Below, one piece after another: positions 21,217-59,671 of a stretch of DNA of 64,000 nucleotides (its first letter is position 1; each line of letters starts with the position of its first letter). The notes under the pieces were generated by a model, which ran no database searches, was not told the DNA's origin, and saw only the letters and a program-made list of their open reading frames with translations. Made by a program: the position numbers and the translations under genes. Origin of the DNA: Candidatus Heimdallarchaeota archaeon (GTDB lineage: Archaea > Asgardarchaeota > Heimdallarchaeia > Heimdallarchaeales > Heimdallarchaeaceae); assembly GCA_018238545.1 (NCBI GenBank), contig JABCTC010000011.1, forward strand, positions 1 through 64,000, read 5' to 3'.

Positions 21217-21783
21217 ATGTCCTTTTTTGATAACTGGTACAGAGGTGATGCCACCTTAAAAGCTGAACCAGATGAAGAATTAGTAAAATTATTCAATGAA
21301 AAAGGTGATGGGAAGGTTCTAGATATTGGTTGTGGACGGGGAAGAAATAGTCTTTATCTTGCAAGTCTTGGTTATGATGTTATTGCAGTTGATGTCTCAA
21401 AACATGCTATCATACAATTAGATCAAAATGCAAAATTACTTGGTTATGATATTGAGGGTATAGTTTGTGATATTGGAGATTATTCTTTCACAGAAAAATA
21501 TGATATAATAGTTATAAGTAATGTTCTTCAATTCATTTTAAAGAGGGTTGAACAAATCAATATAATTTACAAAGTGATGGAATACATAACTACTAATGGA
21601 ACTATTTTTATTAAGCATCCATTAACAATACTGGATTTAGAAAGTCAGTGCTTAAGAAATGGTATGTTGAATCGATTTTTTACTCATTCTGAATTTAACT
21701 GGGAAATATTGCTTGATGTTAACAAACTCGCTGGACGTAAGAAAGATTGTGAATTGAATATTTTCATAGCTAAGAAATCTTGA
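21217..21783 (+). CDS. Class I SAM-dependent methyltransferase (TehB-like)
   Basis: VLDIGCGRGRNSLYLA, AVDVS, YDIIV. Confidence 0.85.
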   Translation: MSFFDNWYRGDATLKAEPDEELVKLFNEKGDGKVLDIGCGRGRNSLYLASLGYDVIAVDVSKHAIIQLDQNAKLLGYDIEGIVCDIGDYSFTEKYDIIVISNVLQFILKRVEQINIIYKVMEYITTNGTIFIKHPLTILDLESQCLRNGMLNRFFTHSEFNWEILLDVNKLAGRKKDCELNIFIAKKS

Positions 21784-22043
21784 AATAAAAGATAACAAGA
21801 GATTAAGTGCAATCTACAATGACAAGGGTATCCGTCATTTTTTTCAAAACAGAAGAATAGAAGATTGTATTTGTATTAACCACATACTTTATTAGGCTTC
21901 AATCTAACCTTTCATACTGATTAAAAATAAGAATGTTAGATTTTGTTTAAGTCTTTGAAAGATTAACTCGTTTCTGATAGTCGATTTTTAATTAAGGAAT
22001 CTCTCACGAGATTCGAAACAATAATTCAATTGGAGGAATTAAC

Positions 22044-22241
22044 TTGAAAGGAAATATCAAAAGAATGATTTCTGATAAAGGTTATGGATTCATCACTGTA
22101 GAAGGAGAAGAAAAAGATCTCTTTTTCCACCGTACTGGTACTACAGGTGAATTTGATGATCTCAATGAAGGAGACGAAGTCGAATTCGATCTAGAAGAAA
22201 CCGATAGAGGAACTCAAGCAAATAACGTAAACAAAGTCTAA
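22044..22241 (+). CDS. Cold-shock domain protein
   Basis: KGYGFI (RNP1), DLFFH (RNP2), EGDEVEF; GGAGG SD before TTG; T-rich tract downstream. Confidence 0.92.
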   Translation: MKGNIKRMISDKGYGFITVEGEEKDLFFHRTGTTGEFDDLNEGDEVEFDLEETDRGTQANNVNKV

Positions 22242-22382
22242 GATTGAAAGGAATGTAAATTTCAGACACTTAGAATTACTTTCTTTTTTTATCTATTTTT
22301 TATTTTTCAATAATTATGCTAGAAATTACTAAAATCAGACATTCATATGCTTTTTCAGTAAATAAGAAAGTTAAAGCTAGTT

Positions 22383-23639
22383 TTAGCTTTGATTCAAGAT
22401 TAACCTAACATTAAGATCAAGTTCTTCACCTTTCTTTGTTAGACCTGTAATATATAATGTTTCATGGTTTCGTATTCCTTGTTCTTTCAATGTTGAATCC
22501 ATTTCTACATCTACTGGGTCTTTTTTATCAATTATCCAAAATGAAGGTAAAAATTCAGGATCATAACTATATCCTCTGTTTTTTATGATAGTTAGTAAAA
22601 CATCAACAGTTGCAGTTGCAGGTATTTTTACTTCTTCAATTATTGTAGCATTCCTACCACAGAGCATGCATTTCTTATTTGGTGGTTTTTCTATATAGAA
22701 GAATTTCCCTACTAATCCATTGTAAATAACATATTCAGGATTTACAGTACCAAGTTCAATTCCTTTGAGATGGTGCATAAGTTTCAATGCTTCTTGTGAT
22801 TGTAAAGAGGCTATTACAGCATTAATACTAATTATTGTTGGGTCGTGTTGGTCAACCATTTTCACAGCTTCATCCAAAGAAAATACCTTTTCAGAGGGGA
22901 AATGCTCTTTCACTAAGTTATTTGCATAGTTTATTACAAGATTCATTTCTTCCAAAATGGTCGTATCAGGGGGTCTATTGTTCTTTGACTCAAAATATAG
23001 TTGTCCTTTCAACAAACAGTGAGATTTTTTTCTTGGTATTCCCACTAGTGTACAAGCTGCTAAAGTTTCTCTTTCTCGTTCTTGCTGTGGATCACATTGA
23101 AGGCATGCATTTTCATCTGGCAAATAGGTGTAAACATGACCATAATATGTTGCAGTTCCTCCATCAATCATTGGTTTCTTAAACTGAACCGCTCTTCGTA
23201 TTAGCTCGTTTCTTGCTGTAACAGAATCTAAACCAGAAACATACATATCAGCTGTAGCATATACCTCTGGGTCAACATCTTCTAGATTGGAATGGTGCCA
23301 AATATATTTACTGTAAGGATTTATTTTCATTAGAGCTCTTGCTGCAACTTTAGCTTTAGGTTCTCCTTCATCTGCATCTGAGAAAAGTATTTGTCTATTA
23401 AGATTGGAATATTCAATAATATCTAAATCGATAAGGTGAATAGTTCCTACACCGGCCATAGCTAAGTTCTTTGCTATTTCTGTTCCCAATCCCCCAACTC
23501 CAACAATTAAAACCGTTGAATCTTTCAAAGCTTTCTGATTCCATCCAGGTAATCTAAGTTGTCTATCAAAACGTATTCTCTCATCTTTTGAAAGGGTTTC
23601 ATCGAAGAAATTAGATTTTTTTATGTTTTTTGCATTCAT
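22383..23639 (-). CDS. Ubiquitin-like activating enzyme E1 (ThiF/UBA family; UBA2/UBA3-like catalytic Cys motif; C-terminal ubiquitin-fold domain)
   Basis: RFDRQ, GVGGLG, DLDIIEYSNLNRQ, CxxC, ACTLVGIPRKKSHC. Confidence 0.9.
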   Translation of the reverse strand: MNAKNIKKSNFFDETLSKDERIRFDRQLRLPGWNQKALKDSTVLIVGVGGLGTEIAKNLAMAGVGTIHLIDLDIIEYSNLNRQILFSDADEGEPKAKVAARALMKINPYSKYIWHHSNLEDVDPEVYATADMYVSGLDSVTARNELIRRAVQFKKPMIDGGTATYYGHVYTYLPDENACLQCDPQQERERETLAACTLVGIPRKKSHCLLKGQLYFESKNNRPPDTTILEEMNLVINYANNLVKEHFPSEKVFSLDEAVKMVDQHDPTIISINAVIASLQSQEALKLMHHLKGIELGTVNPEYVIYNGLVGKFFYIEKPPNKKCMLCGRNATIIEEVKIPATATVDVLLTIIKNRGYSYDPEFLPSFWIIDKKDPVDVEMDSTLKEQGIRNHETLYITGLTKKGEELDLNVRLILNQS

Positions 23640-53379: not shown

Positions 53380-54774
53380 ATGTCTGAAGTTATTGAAGAA
53401 GAGGTTGAAATAGAAACTAAAACATCTAAATACAACGTCTTCAAATGGTCAATGTACGATTTAGCAAATACAGTATATTCGATGATAATTGTTAGTTTGA
53501 TAATCAATCGTTATGTATTGGTGATAGGACAAGTAGAACATGGAATGACTTATGGTGAAGCCAGTTTCGTTTATGGAGTCGTAGCAGCTGTTATGCAAGT
53601 AATCACTGCAATTGGTATGCCCATTATGGGAGCTTTAAGTGACACTACTGGTAAAAGAAAACCATTTGTTCTTGTTTTAACCGGAGTAATTCTATTATTC
53701 TCTAGTCTTCTTGGTTTATTCCACAATATTACAGTAGTATTGATTCTCTATGTAATTGCTAATATTGCTTATCAATGGAGTCTCGCATTTTATGATGCAA
53801 TGCTACCTTTTATAGCTAATCCAAAAGATGTCGGTAAAGTTGGAGGATTTGGAGTTGCCTTTGGTTACTTAGGTACAATAATCTCTTTGTTAGTAATGTT
53901 TCCATTAATTTTGATTTACGGTGATGTTGTAAGTAAAGATGCTAATATAGCTAATCTATCATATGGTTATACAGGTTATTGGTGGATATTTGTTGTCCCA
54001 ATGGCTCTTTTCCTTGTATTTGGGATTCCTTTGATTTTCGTTAAAGAAAAGCAGAAAAAAGTAAAATTATCGGAACAGAAAGATGTTCTTAAAAATACCT
54101 TTAAACAGCTTGGGACGACTTTTAGAGATATAAGAAAACATCGTCAAATGTTAATCTTTGTGATAGGGTATTTCTTTATTGCAGATGTTGCAAATGTTAT
54201 TGTAGCTTATATGACTCCCATAGTAACTGATGCGCTTCAAATCGAAGGTGCGGATATTTCAACAGATCTTTTTGCGATAATTTTCATAATTATTGCAACT
54301 GTTGCAGCTGTAGCTTTTACATATTTCATTGGTAAATTTGCAGAAAAATATGGTGCTAAAAACGCTTTCTTCCTAGTTGGAGGATTATGGGGTCTTGCTT
54401 TGATTATAGGAATCGTAGCAATATTCGTATGGGCACCCATAACAATTGGATTTAATTTTCCATTTATCATGATACTTCTAATGGGATGTTCTGCTGGTGT
54501 AGCTTTAGGAGGTACCTGGACAGCTCAAAGGGTTATGGTTGTGGAATTAGCTCCCAAAGAGAAATTTGGCGAATATTTTGGATTCTCAAAACTAAGTGGG
54601 AAGGTTTCTTCAGCATTAGGACCAATTATTTTTGGAGCAATACTACTAGCTTATGATCCAACAATCGGTTTCAAATCATATGGAATAGCCATGGCTGTTG
54701 TTGGTGGAATAATGTTATTTGGTTTAATAATCATAGCTTTTATTCGACCTGATAAATCTGCAAAGAATTACTAA
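53380..54774 (+). CDS. MFS transporter (UMF1/Atg22-like)
   Basis: WSMYDLAN, FYDAML, GYLG, GEYFG; about 12 TM. Confidence 0.88.
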   Translation: MSEVIEEEVEIETKTSKYNVFKWSMYDLANTVYSMIIVSLIINRYVLVIGQVEHGMTYGEASFVYGVVAAVMQVITAIGMPIMGALSDTTGKRKPFVLVLTGVILLFSSLLGLFHNITVVLILYVIANIAYQWSLAFYDAMLPFIANPKDVGKVGGFGVAFGYLGTIISLLVMFPLILIYGDVVSKDANIANLSYGYTGYWWIFVVPMALFLVFGIPLIFVKEKQKKVKLSEQKDVLKNTFKQLGTTFRDIRKHRQMLIFVIGYFFIADVANVIVAYMTPIVTDALQIEGADISTDLFAIIFIIIATVAAVAFTYFIGKFAEKYGAKNAFFLVGGLWGLALIIGIVAIFVWAPITIGFNFPFIMILLMGCSAGVALGGTWTAQRVMVVELAPKEKFGEYFGFSKLSGKVSSALGPIIFGAILLAYDPTIGFKSYGIAMAVVGGIMLFGLIIIAFIRPDKSAKNY

Positions 54775-54788
54775 TCTTTTCCTTTCTT

Positions 54789-56018
54789 TTAATAAATTAG
54801 AAGGAAAGGATTATTTTTCCTCTTCCTTTTTTTTCCATTTCTGTTATTTCTAACTAATCCTGCAAAGCCTATTATTATCACAATTGATAGGATAAGCATT
54901 GAAATTAGTGAGACAGATAGTGACGTATTGAACAGAATAAATACTAGACTTACTATGAAATACAACAGATTTCCTATAGATGAATAGATTGAGACAATAG
55001 TAGCTCTAAGATCCGAAGTAGCTTTCCTTTGTATCATAGTTGATATTATGGGTGCTCTTCCTCCTCTTGCTAATTGTACTGCAAACATGGTAGTTAGAAT
55101 TATCAAAGAATCAAAGTACCATAGAACGAATATGCTAACTATTTCTAGGATCATGAATCCTAGTAACAGGAAATCTTCGTGGTGTTCCTTTATCCTTGCA
55201 AATAACCAGCTACCTATTGCAGCCACTAAATTCATCCCAGCAAAGATTAACCCAATATGCAGCGAATTTAACCCATTGCTAAATAGTTTTGGCTGATATG
55301 CCCAGAAAGCCACTCTTTGAGCTACTGAGAAAGCAATGAAAGCTAATAGTACACCTATAAGGAATTTCGATTTGAACAACGTTTTTAGTGCTGACTTCGT
55401 TGCCTTTTGTATACTCTGTGATTTCGCCCTTTCTTTCTCTTCCATTAGTAAGCTTATCACAACTTTAATTCCGGAGATTATACCAATTATGAACAAAGGC
55501 CATCTAAGTGAGTATAGAGCAATAACACCAGAAATTGGTAAAGAAACCATTGCAACTATAAAAGCAAGAGTTGAAGATTTTCCGATGATTTTCTTAAACC
55601 TATCTTCTTTTCCATAGTATGCAAGAGTGTCATACAACAATCCTGTATCAGATCCGGATATAGCAGCTAAGCCCATTCCAAATACTGCTTCACTTATTGC
55701 GAAAGCTGCAAAACTTCTACCTAATCCATAACATACACTTGCTATTGCTATTAACAGGTAACCTCCAGCAAGTACGTATCTACGTTTGAATGAATCGGAT
55801 AAAGCTCCGCTTGGTATTTCAAAGATAACTACCGATAAAGCAAATATCCCTTGAAGGAACAGCATTTGACTGAAATCAAGACCAGCTTCGCCCCATATTT
55901 TAACAGCTACAGGAATAACCATAGCTATGAAATCTAGTCGTAACAGAATGAATAGTAAACTATTCTTTCGAACTTCATCCACTTGTGAACTATTTTTTTG
56001 TGTAACTTGCGATTTCAT
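54789..56018 (-). CDS. MFS transporter
   Basis: EIPSGALSD..RR, SGSD.GLLYD, RATIVS; AAGGAG SD. Confidence 0.88.
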   Translation of the reverse strand: MKSQVTQKNSSQVDEVRKNSLLFILLRLDFIAMVIPVAVKIWGEAGLDFSQMLFLQGIFALSVVIFEIPSGALSDSFKRRYVLAGGYLLIAIASVCYGLGRSFAAFAISEAVFGMGLAAISGSDTGLLYDTLAYYGKEDRFKKIIGKSSTLAFIVAMVSLPISGVIALYSLRWPLFIIGIISGIKVVISLLMEEKERAKSQSIQKATKSALKTLFKSKFLIGVLLAFIAFSVAQRVAFWAYQPKLFSNGLNSLHIGLIFAGMNLVAAIGSWLFARIKEHHEDFLLLGFMILEIVSIFVLWYFDSLIILTTMFAVQLARGGRAPIISTMIQRKATSDLRATIVSIYSSIGNLLYFIVSLVFILFNTSLSVSLISMLILSIVIIIGFAGLVRNNRNGKKRKRKNNPFLLIY

Positions 56019-56255: not shown

Positions 56256-56409
56256 TTCTTGAACATCATAACTCTAAAATCTATTTTTCTAATTTGTCTT
56301 AAAAAGGTGTCGATAAACAATATACTCTTCAGAATAGGTCAGTACTCGCTTTTTAATTTTGAATGTTCTATGATAAAAGTTATAATTTTGCATTACTCTT
56401 TTATAACTG

Positions 56410-57297
56410 ATGTCTAACTCCGACAACTCATATATTGATGTTTTTGAGAATGTGCAGAAGCTAATTGTGGGTAGGAAAAAAGAACTACGACTAATGATAA
56501 ATGCTGTTAGCAAAGGGCTGCCAATAATTATTGAAGGTCCTGTGGGGACAGGTAAGACTGAGATGGCTAAGGTTCTTGCTCAATCTCTTGAAAGACCTTT
56601 TGTTAGGGTAGATGGTGACGATAATCTTACCTCAATTAAGTTGAAAGGTTGGTACGACCCCCCATTAGTTCTAGAGAAGGGTTTTTCCCGCGAAACGTTC
56701 ATTCCTGGACCTCTAACTCATTCTATGGAAAATGGAGGAATATTCTTTTATAATGAAGTTAATAGAGCTCCCTCCGAAACGATAAATGCAGTTCTAACCG
56801 CACTAGACGAGAAATTAATTACCATTCCTCAAATTGGAGAAATTGTCGCTAAAGAAGGATTCATCTCAATTTTCACATATAATCCTGAAGACACGGTGGC
56901 TACGAACCCACTGCCTAAAGCATTTTATGATCGATGTATTTGGATTCATGTCTCTCATCAAACATTTGAAGAAATGAAAGAAATCGTATTTCTAAGAACA
57001 GGTTCCTCCGATAACTTGATGATTTCCATTTCTTGTGAAATTGTTCAAGCCACAATTAATCATCCAGAATTGGAAACAAGTTCTACTGTTAGAGGAGCTA
57101 TTCATTTAGTTGAACTATATGAAGATCTAGAGACAATTGATGAACAAACACTAATTGAAAGAGCAATAGCTGTGCACTCTCGAAAAATCAGATGTAAAAC
57201 AACAAGTAGTAAAACAGAAAGTGAAATTATCGAGGAAATTGTTTCGAAAATTCTGTCTAGATATGAAGATGACCGCATACTCCGAAAAAAAGAGTAA
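56410..57297 (+). CDS. MoxR-family AAA+ ATPase
   Basis: EGPVGTGKT, PGPL, FYNEVNRA, TYNP, LPKAFYDR. Confidence 0.9.
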   Translation: MSNSDNSYIDVFENVQKLIVGRKKELRLMINAVSKGLPIIIEGPVGTGKTEMAKVLAQSLERPFVRVDGDDNLTSIKLKGWYDPPLVLEKGFSRETFIPGPLTHSMENGGIFFYNEVNRAPSETINAVLTALDEKLITIPQIGEIVAKEGFISIFTYNPEDTVATNPLPKAFYDRCIWIHVSHQTFEEMKEIVFLRTGSSDNLMISISCEIVQATINHPELETSSTVRGAIHLVELYEDLETIDEQTLIERAIAVHSRKIRCKTTSSKTESEIIEEIVSKILSRYEDDRILRKKE

Positions 57298-57335
57298 TTG
57301 GTGACCCTACACTCAGTATTGTAGGGGATGAGCCA
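57285..57335 (+). other. Candidate programmed -1 frameshift signal (A AAA AAA plus stem-loop/pseudoknot)
   Basis: CGA AAA AAA GAG TAA at the MoxR end; -1 frame open from 57273 into the VWA ORF; perfect stem CCCTACA/TGTAGGG at 57305-57326. Confidence 0.6.
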
Positions 57336-57338
57336 TTC

Positions 57339-58325
57339 TTGACCTTTCCTTCCAAAAATGCTGGTCGTATGATAATTAACGAAATACAGATGGAATTAGG
57401 TAAAAGACAAGAAGATATGGCTAAAATTTTTGAGTTAGCTGAACAAGCTGCTGAAAATAGAAATTTGGATGCTCTTAGATTAATTGCCACTAATTATCCA
57501 ACGTTAGCTGCAAAAATCATGAACAACATGGAAATTAGTGACATAATTTTGGATCAACTTAGAGGGGAAGATTTAATCCAATTATATTCAAGAACTAAGA
57601 AACATCTAAAATATCAGCTTCGAAAAAGGATGTTAGATAGGCTTATACCTTTTATAACAGAACAAGCAAAAGCTATTTACCGGAGAGGAGTATCTGCATC
57701 AGTTTCAAAATACATTAATTATGAACCAGGACTTGATTGGGAACTTGAAATGACTATAGAAAAAATGATGAGTACTGGCAAATTATCACCTGATTATGAT
57801 AGCATTGTCTCAAAAGAGCCTATTAAGAAGAAGAGGAGCATTGTTGTTTGTATCGATAAAAGTTTGAGTGTTTTGCGACTTATTCATCAAATCGTTCTGA
57901 TGGCATCAGTTTTATCTTTATCAGTCAAGAAAGAAAATTTTTCTATTATTGCATTTGATTCTGAATCAGCTATTCTGAAACACATGAACAAATACACCGA
58001 CCCTGATGAACTTGTAGAACTTATTTTGAATATCGAAAGCGGTGGAAAAACCAATCTCGAAGATGCGCTTAAACTTGCCTTAGACCAACTCAAACAAAGT
58101 TCCTCTAGAGAAAAAATTGTCTATATGATAAGTGATCTTGAGAGAACGATTGGAGGTAACCCTCTTCCTATTATTCAAAATATAGAAGATTTAAGAGTAA
58201 TTTATGCTCGAACTTATCGCCGGGTTTCTTTTGTAGATGAAGTTATCTCGCTCTCTAATGTTTCCTTAATAGAATTAAACTTTGACAGTGACTTAGTGGA
58301 AATAACTACAAAGTTGATTTCTTAA
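57339..58325 (+). CDS. VWA (MIDAS) domain protein, MoxR partner; possibly expressed as a frameshift fusion
   Basis: IDKSLS (DxSxS), GGKTN, ISD; frame open upstream to 57273. Confidence 0.85.
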   Translation: MTFPSKNAGRMIINEIQMELGKRQEDMAKIFELAEQAAENRNLDALRLIATNYPTLAAKIMNNMEISDIILDQLRGEDLIQLYSRTKKHLKYQLRKRMLDRLIPFITEQAKAIYRRGVSASVSKYINYEPGLDWELEMTIEKMMSTGKLSPDYDSIVSKEPIKKKRSIVVCIDKSLSVLRLIHQIVLMASVLSLSVKKENFSIIAFDSESAILKHMNKYTDPDELVELILNIESGGKTNLEDALKLALDQLKQSSSREKIVYMISDLERTIGGNPLPIIQNIEDLRVIYARTYRRVSFVDEVISLSNVSLIELNFDSDLVEITTKLIS

Positions 58326-59671
58326 TCATCTTTTTGTATCACTTTTTTCTTCTTAGGTAAATCTATTAGTTGATCTACAGTGATTAATGTTACACCAATC
58401 AATCCCATTACAAGCCCTTCAATTTGTGCTTCATTTCGCAAGAAAGTATAATTTATTGCAATTGTTGCTTCATAGTAGAATGTTTCAGAAATGTTCCATT
58501 GACTAACAAAAGCAATAACATAATTATTTTCAACGGCTGTTGTTTCATTAAGTAATATACTGATCCCTGCAGAATTTTCCTCGTGAATTAATTGTTTAAC
58601 GAAGTAACTCTCCTCTACTATGGGGTTTGTCAAAGAGTTGTAACTAACAATCATGTTTGCATAAGTTATATTCTGATCATAATACTGTAAAGTCAAATTA
58701 TCAAAAGCATTGAAGAAATCAAAGAAAGTGTTGTTATTTGTTAACACTACAGTAGTGTTATATGGAGTAAGACCGTACTCACTTTGAAAAATCAGTTCTG
58801 TTGAAGATTGTGGTCTATTAGTAAAAACAAGTCCCAAAGTTGGATCAAAATAATTCTGCGTATTAACATAATTAGAAGAAACTTGATAATTAACTACTCT
58901 TTCCTGTCCAATTACTGGTCCAAGTAACAAACCTGCGCCAATAAAAAATAACCCAATTAAAGTCATTTGTTTAGAAATTCTTTTCCAAGTAATCTTCAAT
59001 ATCCTTCCAGTTTTATTTGGTTCATTCTTCTTTTTCCTTTTCTTCCTCTTAAAGACTGGTAGCACTATTACAACTAACCAAGTAATCATAATAATCAGAT
59101 GAAGTCCAAATTGCTCAATAGGCAAATCCCAGTAATTGCCCACAATCTGACTTCTCTCAGCTTGTGTTAAATCCACAAAAAACATGCCTGTCCCTTCTTG
59201 AAAAGAGTAGATTCTCCAATCTGGAATAATTCCAAGGAAGGATAAGGGAAAGAATAACCATGGCTGGTTTTCGAATCTAAGATATACTGATAATTCATAG
59301 AAATTTGTATCTATAGGCCAGAATAGAAGTATTGGATCCCAACCTAAATCTAGACCTATATGTAATAACCACATGATTGAAGCAAGTTTGAAAAATCTGA
59401 TAATTCTTTTACCTCTTTCATCAAAAGAATTAGTTCGTTTATTGATTAAACCTATAACAATAAAGCTCAATAAAACAAATGCCGGTGGGATTATACTGTG
59501 TGTATACGACCGATGCGTCCCAATTAGCAGGTCTATATCAGGGAAAATAGCAAAAACGTTTATCAGGAGAAATTCCCATCTATGTTCCTTATAATATTCT
59601 CGGTTTTCCTTAGACAACAATAACCAAACAATAAGACCTTGCAATGCTAGGTGTGTAAAAGTATAAGTCAT
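58322..59671 (-). CDS. YdjM-like membrane metal-dependent hydrolase with added extracellular domain and C-terminal TM
   Basis: TH..FPDID..HRSYTHS..LHIGLD..LFWP. Confidence 0.75.
   Translation of the reverse strand: MTYTFTHLALQGLIVWLLLSKENREYYKEHRWEFLLINVFAIFPDIDLLIGTHRSYTHSIIPPAFVLLSFIVIGLINKRTNSFDERGKRIIRFFKLASIMWLLHIGLDLGWDPILLFWPIDTNFYELSVYLRFENQPWLFFPLSFLGIIPDWRIYSFQEGTGMFFVDLTQAERSQIVGNYWDLPIEQFGLHLIIMITWLVVIVLPVFKRKKRKKKNEPNKTGRILKITWKRISKQMTLIGLFFIGAGLLLGPVIGQERVVNYQVSSNYVNTQNYFDPTLGLVFTNRPQSSTELIFQSEYGLTPYNTTVVLTNNNTFFDFFNAFDNLTLQYYDQNITYANMIVSYNSLTNPIVEESYFVKQLIHEENSAGISILLNETTAVENNYVIAFVSQWNISETFYYEATIAINYTFLRNEAQIEGLVMGLIGVTLITVDQLIDLPKKKKVIQKDD

Follow-up and report, generated by a model that had tools for sequence, protein, structure and literature searches.

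The MoxR and VWA reading frames

The DNA analyzed here, 64,000 nucleotides of contig JABCTC010000011.1 from Candidatus Heimdallarchaeota archaeon (the window), contains a gene for a MoxR-type AAA+ ATPase overlapped by an open frame for a VWA-domain protein. The junction between the two is a candidate site of programmed -1 ribosomal frameshifting and is the subject of this report. The MoxR gene (56410-57297, + strand) sets the 0 frame and encodes 295 amino acids. It was taken from the open reading frame (ORF) list and matched the AAA_5 (2.3e-21) and AAA_3 (6e-13) domains; its Walker A motif is GPVGTGKT and its Walker B motif carries NE rather than DE. The best NCBIfam match was GvpN-like and fell under the cut-off. 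The VWA open frame (57273-58325, + strand) lies in the -1 frame relative to MoxR, runs for 350 codons to a stop at 58323-58325, and matched VWA_2 (8e-12) and VWA_CoxE (7e-7). Its VWA-domain part (57369-58325) consists of a helical N-domain and a VWA domain with a DxSxS metal ion-dependent adhesion site (MIDAS) motif, read as DKSLS in the window. An AAA_5-type ATPase with a Walker A motif is thereby found next to a VWA protein with a MIDAS motif.

The MoxR gene ends in CTC CGA AAA AAA GAG TAA, with the TAA at 57295-57297. Because a TGA at 57270-57272 blocks the -1 frame, any change of frame must fall between 57273, where the -1 frame opens, and 57297, where the 0 frame shuts. Inside this overlap (57273-57297, + strand) sits the heptamer A_AAA_AAA (57285-57291, + strand), in X_XXY_YYZ phase with respect to the MoxR frame. 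Such a heptamer permits perfect re-pairing of two tRNA-Lys one base back. Between the heptamer and the VWA-domain part lies a segment (57291-57368, + strand, -1 frame) of 26 codons that is read solely after a shift, as R-VIGDPTLSIVGDEPFLTFPSKNAGR; the linker peptide VIGDPTLSIVGDEPFLTFPSK begins upstream of every possible VWA start codon, the first of which in the window are TTG 57339 and ATG 57369. The computed trans-frame product is 294 + 344 = 638 amino acids, the size proposed in the initial annotation of this DNA. The coordinates given there, the phase of the A7 run, the open -1 frame from 57273 and the two start codons were likewise confirmed in the sequence.

In a single genome, an in-phase heptamer within a -1 overlap is not beyond chance. 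A control was drawn from the window's own genome (G000, 34% G+C), using pairs of ORFs in which the -1 open frame spans the upstream stop and continues for at least 150 codons, and 12 of 213 such pairs had an in-phase X_XXY_YYZ heptamer. AAA makes up 76% of the lysine codons, and given a conserved x-Lys-Lys the codon-usage expectation of xxA AAA AAA is about 0.22 per independent lineage. Since other pairs share the pattern, the case depends on comparison with relatives. The other pairs in this genome include C26 20832-23152 (+), with A_AAA_AAT between two 390-codon frames, C17 172-1241 (+), C7 48044-50379 (+) and eight more; in most of them a normal start codon lies within the overlap or close to it, and these are probably ordinary coupled genes.

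Conservation of the candidate slip site and of the linker

Thirty-seven orthologous loci were compared. Other species of the genus contributed 22 of them, three further genera of the family 4, and f5, a class-level family, 11. The genus loci were found by a related-genome search, with VWA identities to the window of 68-94%, and public protein names place these relatives in Heimdallarchaeaceae. The distant orthologues came from a search of 399 genomes of the phylum; VWA identity was 60, 57, 54 and 38% in the four loci of other genera and 28-34% in f5, where MoxR identity was 44-46%. In all, 218 Asgard genomes had a match. A_AAA_AAA or A_AAA_AAC was present in phase in 37 of 37 loci, so that the slippery site and its phase, for which the initial annotation had suggested looking, are kept down to about 30% VWA identity. 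In all of them the 0-frame stop lies 0-2 codons past the heptamer and the VWA is in the -1 frame, which opens 0-22 codons ahead of the heptamer.

Within the genus the junction CGAAAAAAAGA (AGAAAAAAAGA in two species) was invariant and in the same phase. The 0-frame stop follows the heptamer by 1-2 codons, the -1 frame opens 3-6 codons ahead of it, and in 22 of 22 loci the open VWA frame extends 30-34 codons upstream of the annotated start. The four loci of other genera all read xxA AAA AAA, one codon, stop. Each of the 11 f5 loci has either CCA AAA AAC TAG or xxA AAA AAA xxx TAG, again with the VWA in the -1 frame.

This constancy bears on the idea that the split gene is an artifact, either a homopolymer error of assembly or sequencing in a true A8 in-frame fusion or a decaying, broken fusion or pseudogene. 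Homopolymers are error-prone and in-frame fusions of the family do exist, but the same frame structure was found in 37 independent assemblies, among them the single-contig genomes G063 and G065, and the f5 heptamer can be A6C directly before TAG. Neither an A8 run nor independent VWA starts lacking the heptamer, the outcomes that would have spoken against a frameshift, were seen in any of the 37. Both halves are also under purifying selection, with VWA dN/dS (ratio of nonsynonymous to synonymous rates) of 0.09-0.17 and MoxR parts 44-72% identical. Error or decay is scarcely conceivable as the explanation.

The linker was stop-free in the -1 frame in 37 of 37 loci. Pooled over 25 linker codons, the ratio of nonsynonymous to synonymous differences (pN/pS) was 0.42 for the -1 frame; reading these bases in either of the remaining frames gave 0.83 and 1.37, and values deeper in the VWA ORF were 0.31 and 0.22. 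Subclades of the genus are near synonymous saturation (pS 0.54-0.70). Most linker changes between subclades, an AGT/TCA serine switch among them, were synonymous in the -1 frame, and the -1 reading yields a conserved genus peptide, KKR..GD.T.SIVGDEPF..FPS..AGR. This pattern of substitution indicates protein-coding evolution of the linker in the -1 frame and in no other, which bears out the expectation that 57292-57368 would be conserved as protein.

The distribution of start codons was examined in the same loci. ATG 57369 is kept in 19 of 22 genus species, while the codon aligned with it is Leu (TTG or TTA) in L008, L013 and L015 and Phe in an in-frame fusion of another family (G024, described below). 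The first ATG, GTG or TTG past the heptamer lies at +43 codons in L054, +44 in L015 and L056, +58 in L051 and L052, +69 in L046, +76 in L050 and +77 in L047, and in L058 it lies at +194, within the VWA domain. Starts this far inside the ORF in several lineages argue against independent initiation of the VWA. No Shine-Dalgarno (SD)-like 5-mer was found ahead of ATG 57369. Such a 5-mer precedes 13.8% of ORFs, compared with 3.6% in the control, and with SD-like motifs at just ~14% of ORFs the absence is weak evidence.

These observations can be set against the simplest reading, that of two ordinary genes. The VWA would start by itself at ATG 57369 or TTG 57339, and AT-rich codon usage and a conserved untranslated spacer would incidentally account for the A7 run, for the openness of the -1 frame and for the downstream hairpin. 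Relatives of the VWA are annotated publicly as a protein of 318 (also 328) amino acids, most genus species retain the ATG, and the in-phase heptamers and favored AAA codons of the control agree with this account; ATG 57369 is a possible independent VWA start. However, substitutions in the spacer follow the pattern of protein-coding sequence in the -1 frame alone, the spacer is free of stops in every locus, and many relatives have no start codon until 43-194 codons past the heptamer. Where the ATG is replaced, its column holds Leu or Phe, like an internal hydrophobic residue; no SD-like motif precedes it; and the natural in-frame fusions are collinear through the junction. Taken together, two independently initiated genes appear very unlikely.

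Downstream RNA structure and the nature of the proposed shift

Downstream of the heptamer the minimum free energy (MFE) fold contains the stem-loop CCCTACA/TGTAGGG (57305-57311/57320-57326, + strand), as the initial annotation had proposed, with a loop of 8 and a distance of 13 nucleotides (nt) from the heptamer. It is enclosed by an outer 3-bp helix, GGT/GCC (57300-57302/57332-57334, + strand), that begins 8 nt past the heptamer. The fold of 57285-57345, outer helix included, has an energy of -16.3 kcal/mol (z = -2.0; 11 of 200 shuffles were as stable). The structure is more stable than all same-size control windows of the window's own VWA ORF, and in 25 of 37 loci the 42 nt past the heptamer fold better than 95% of such windows. 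The stem-loop at 57305-57326 is presumed to be the frameshift stimulator. Rfam contained no family matching 57150-57450.

Across the genus, 91.9% of cells are paired at the 10 proposed positions; sliding the 3' partners by 1-3 columns lowers this to 29-59%. Variation on both sides is seen in four pairs, one example being a C-G to U-A change alongside a Gly-to-Arg replacement, and the observed covariation score was reached by 1 of 500 shuffles. The stem is thus kept with some compensatory changes, and other clades have other hairpins at the same place. The outer helix, put forward in the initial annotation as TGGT/GCCA, does fold and is kept as GGT/RCC, pairing in 98% of cells. Two of its pairs never vary and its bases also encode Gly-Asp and Glu-Pro, so the helix receives no independent support from the comparison. 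An alternative pseudoknot, in which the loop CTCA would pair with TGAG at 57329-57332, was rejected as a conserved feature because the loops of relatives differ and the pairing is not kept.

Genus g10 has another stem of 7-8 bp, CTCTATC/GATAGAG, equally far from the heptamer. The f5 loci carry a hairpin rich in G+C, GCGGGA-loop-TCCCGC, which begins 7 nt past the heptamer (-10 to -17 kcal/mol). The five G-C pairs of this hairpin never vary and covariation says nothing about it. Its stem uses Arg CGG and Pro CCC, each in 11 of 11 loci; in the rest of these genes CGG accounts for 3.7% of Arg codons and CCC for 12.5% of Pro codons. This use of rare codons is a sign that selection acts on the RNA as well as on the protein.

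One further feature was observed in this region. The sequence GGTGA (57300-57304; GGTGAC/GGTGAT) is near-invariant 8 nt past the heptamer and is complementary to the usual archaeal 16S 3' end, and a paralogous gene pair has GGAGG-like runs at the equivalent place. GGTGA may be just Gly-Asp/Glu coding together with stem bases. Lying downstream of the slip site and encoding Gly-Asp, it makes no case as an SD-like stimulator, and no upstream SD-like stimulator was identified at the slip site.

The paralogous pair, which also surfaced in the genome control, lies outside the window, on contig C68 of the same genome. Its NorQ-like MoxR gene (22502-23383, - strand) is overlapped by a VWA open frame (21423-22544, - strand) that is in the -1 frame relative to it. 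The MoxR end reads GAT TTT TTC TAG, with T_TTT_TTC in phase, and the first VWA start is 62 nt beyond the stop. Forty-one loci of this type were compared, from the order and across the phylum; the group is more mixed and less fully analyzed than the main pair. T_TTT was found in phase just ahead of the stop in 39 of 41 loci, the remaining two having A_AAT_TTC and A_AAC_CCT. A -1 shift is required in 37 of the 39 T_TTT loci and a +1 shift in two, both from family f7 (L068, G089:C37; L070, G081:C90). The f7 loci read AAG TTT TTT CGG ... stop with the VWA in the +1 frame, and their slippery Phe codons are followed by CGG, a rare codon for Arg, as is typical of +1 sites. A downstream hairpin ranks in the top 5% of its own ORF in 19 of 39 loci, and the hairpin sequences vary with the pairing kept (e.g., GGAGG..CCTCC and GGGAATTCG..CGAATTCCC). 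For loci with TTT TGA, coupled re-initiation at an overlapping TTG is possible. In other families, five loci encode such a pair as an in-frame fusion 648-724 amino acids long, and three of these read ..FF-R.. where the paralogue has ..DFF-L..

The window site is likely a programmed -1 ribosomal frameshift site. According to this proposal, most ribosomes on the MoxR mRNA would stop at TAA 57295 and release the free 295-residue AAA+ ATPase, and a fraction would slip one base back on A_AAA_AAA at 57285-57291, with both Lys-tRNAs re-pairing. The hairpin, which starts 8-13 nt downstream, probably assists the slip. Shifted ribosomes would then read AGA GTA ATT ... through a flexible linker into the VWA frame and produce a 638-residue MoxR-linker-helical-VWA fusion. 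A single gene pair could in this way supply ring subunits with and without a tethered VWA/MIDAS adaptor, at a ratio set by the frameshift efficiency, as ChlI/ChlD and NorQ/NorD do through separate or frameshifted genes.

An alternative source of the same fusion would be programmed transcriptional slippage, in which RNA polymerase adds one A within A7 and the resulting A8 mRNAs encode the fusion in frame. In this genus the product would be identical (..RKK-RVIG..), and the slip site is a homopolymer of 6-9 A in every locus. Both mechanisms have been reported for A/T-rich recoding sites, according to a review as cited in PMC9227772. However, several features speak against slippage. The heptamer is always in X_XXY_YYZ phase and transcription needs no phase; the conserved structure is found downstream, spaced as is typical for frameshifting by ribosomes, and rare codons enforce it in f5. 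Hairpins known to stimulate slippage are placed upstream. In addition, the paralogue often has just T4 (GGT TTT CCC, GAT TTT ATA, GAT TTT CAC), too short for efficient slippage, and the -1 relationship is kept. The constant codon phase, the downstream structure and its spacing, the rare-codon stem of f5 and the T4 sites of the paralogue together favor a ribosomal over a transcriptional slip, and slippage by the polymerase is considered unlikely.

Several points weigh against programmed frameshifting at the window site, in addition to the chance level of such heptamers in one genome. The relatives compared are kin and 37 of 37 loci do not amount to 37 independent trials. The widespread retention of ATG 57369 in the genus would allow independent VWA initiation too, and the constant A homopolymer could support slippage in transcription just as well. 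The genus hairpin is modest, with 7 + 3 bp and the z-score given above, so that structure is present at a short spacer but the window's own stem is not strong; its core is 13 nt from the heptamer rather than the usual 5-9 nt, and the hairpin is weak in L017, L020, L023 and L046. The stem bases encode conserved residues and part of the pairing could be a by-product of coding. The fusion product itself is a prediction from the sequence.

In-frame fusions, known systems and significance

Natural in-frame fusions provide a view of the proposed product. In G024, which belongs to another family of the same order, the orthologous locus (L021, G024:C74, 1895-4653, - strand) has two genes. The first encodes a free MoxR of 277 amino acids, 51% identical to the window MoxR. 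The second, eight bases downstream, encodes an in-frame MoxR-VWA fusion of 638 amino acids, whose halves are 33% and 31% identical to the two proteins of the window. The fusion junction, CCT CCG AAA AAA CGC (PPKKRF), has six A's in frame, aligns with the trans-frame ..LRKK-RVIG.. of the window and is collinear through the junction. The ATPase part of the fusion has diverged (Walker A GSGKR) and the free copy is conserved, the division of labor also seen between ChlI and ChlD. The G024 pair looks like a counterpart, in two genes, of the frameshifted locus. Many proteins of 600-660 amino acids carrying both halves were recovered when the G024 fusion served as the query of an exhaustive, profile-free search; a search with the window VWA returned none of these longer, fused relatives, owing to the word-index limit of that search.

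The fold was assessed with the G024 fusion in place of the window proteins, to which it is 31-33% identical. An AlphaFold model built on 40 fused relatives had a mean predicted local distance difference test (pLDDT) score of 86 and comprised an AAA+ part (1-280), a low-confidence linker (287-309), a helical part (308-425) and a VWA domain (430-636). The low-confidence, disordered linker starts at the junction. In Foldseek searches the AAA+ half matched NorQ (E = 2.6e-15, TM to target 0.79-0.82) and also CbbQ (E ~1e-15), and the VWA half matched NorD VWA chains. By sequence, the best solved-structure match to residues 21-198 of the fusion (P0075) was midasin/Rea1 (E = 7e-33 over 3 stretches), and matches to NorQ/CbbQ were far weaker (~1e-9). 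Many midasin-like proteins of 2000-6000 amino acids were also seen among the representative matches to this fusion. The sequence similarity of P0075 to midasin may be relevant to the origin of the midasin AAA ring with its tethered MIDAS. Like the proposed product, midasin/Rea1 has an AAA_5-type ring with a VWA/MIDAS on a flexible tether; unlike the window locus, it is one chain of ~4900 amino acids with six fused AAA modules, a C-terminal MIDAS and no recoding, and the likeness is at the level of domains only.

The site itself resembles the classical -1 cassettes of dnaX (A_AAA_AAG) and Sulfolobus fucA (A_AAA_AAT), which also have an A-rich X_XXY_YYZ heptamer read by tRNA-Lys, a close 0-frame stop and a downstream stem-loop. 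The outcome differs: frameshifting truncates the product in dnaX and restores a split enzyme in fucA, whereas the shift in the window would add a whole partner gene.

A closer parallel is found in the frameshifted chlD genes (fs-chlD) of Mg/Co-chelatases, reportedly the subject of a 2020 study by Antonov. In these genes a programmed frameshift, mostly -1 and in some cases +1, yields a short AAA+ subunit and a long AAA+-linker-VWA subunit from one gene, at AT-rich slippery sequences with downstream RNA structure; relatives have separate chlI and unshifted chlD genes, and some fs-chlD hosts also lack the large chelatase subunit CobN/ChlH (PMC9227772). A frameshift between AAA+ and VWA parts, for which the initial annotation had invoked the chlD genes, therefore has a precedent. 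As in fs-chlD, the shift in the window falls between the AAA+ and linker-VWA parts and would give a short and a long product, and the separate small-subunit gene and unshifted fusion of G024 match the gene arrangement of fs-chlD relatives. However, the window MoxR scored only 26.2 bits on the TIGR02031 BchD-ChlD model (cut-off 499.55), over its N-terminal part only, and its Pfam matches are AAA_5/AAA_3, with no Mg-chelatase domain. The nearest solved folds are NorQ, CbbQ and NorD, the host is an Asgard archaeon, and two paralogous lineages have different slippery sites. CobN/ChlH (PF02514) was not found in the window's genome, which is 91.8% complete, and control genomes gave matches. A chelatase identity was rejected on the TIGR02031 score, the missing chelatase domain and the lack of CobN in the genome. 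The window locus works like fs-chlD but is not a member of that family.

The NorQ-NorD and CbbQ-CbbO systems are similar in the fold of the two G024 fusion halves and in the DxSxS MIDAS motif. In NorQ-NorD the VWA protein is described, in the abstract of PMC13036017, as engaging the ATPase ring, with remodeling of a linker. Unlike the window pair, these systems are encoded by separate genes, that abstract reports no recoding for them, and identity is ~20%. Their targets, nitric oxide reductase and rubisco, have no evident counterpart at the window locus. By analogy with ChlI/ChlD and NorQ/NorD, the shift might determine how many subunits of a MoxR hexamer bear a VWA and how many are plain.

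The surroundings of the locus are as follows. No obvious client for a MoxR-VWA module is encoded among its neighbors in the window. The flanking genes (58322-59671, - strand, and 53380-56018) encode a convergent YdjM-family membrane protein of 449 amino acids, a divergent major facilitator superfamily (MFS) transporter and, upstream, a second MFS/Atg22-like transporter. A TATA-box-like TTATAA (56380-56385, + strand), read from the sequence, lies 25-30 nt ahead of the MoxR ATG; inspection found no SD-like motif ahead of this ATG, and TTATAA may be the archaeal promoter of a leaderless transcript. A scan for bacterial promoters and terminators, of a type not applicable to archaea, gave nothing exceeding shuffles.

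The evidence from both paralogous lineages makes it slightly more probable than not that recoding of the NorQ-like MoxR-VWA modules is old and extends across the whole Asgard phylum. Each lineage would frameshift its ATPase into its VWA partner, one at A_AAA_AAN with a hairpin and the other at U_UUU beside a stop or rare codon (+1 in two f7 loci). Lineages would move among frameshifted, +1, in-frame fused and duplicated states, the last with a free ATPase and a fusion whose ATPase part has diverged; G024 is a natural example of this proposed resolution by duplication. To our knowledge, few programmed frameshifts have been established in cellular archaeal genes, and full-text literature searches combining frameshifting with MoxR/VWA or Asgard found nothing relevant.

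The window site is a candidate with unusually complete comparative support, and there is a good chance that recoding of this kind is widespread in Asgard archaea. Frameshifting here would mean that hundreds of Asgard loci, at present annotated as two genes, need correction. It would also extend the logic of fs-chlD to a non-chelatase MoxR family, which suggests a general design of mixed rings in which tethered VWA adaptors make up a fixed share. For research on recoding, the loci offer a graded series of archaeal slippery sites and stimulators. If recoding is indeed phylum-wide, few conserved frameshifts known from cellular archaeal genes would be as widespread, and these sites would form a natural series for the origin of tethered-MIDAS AAA+ machines such as ChlD and perhaps the midasin-like proteins.

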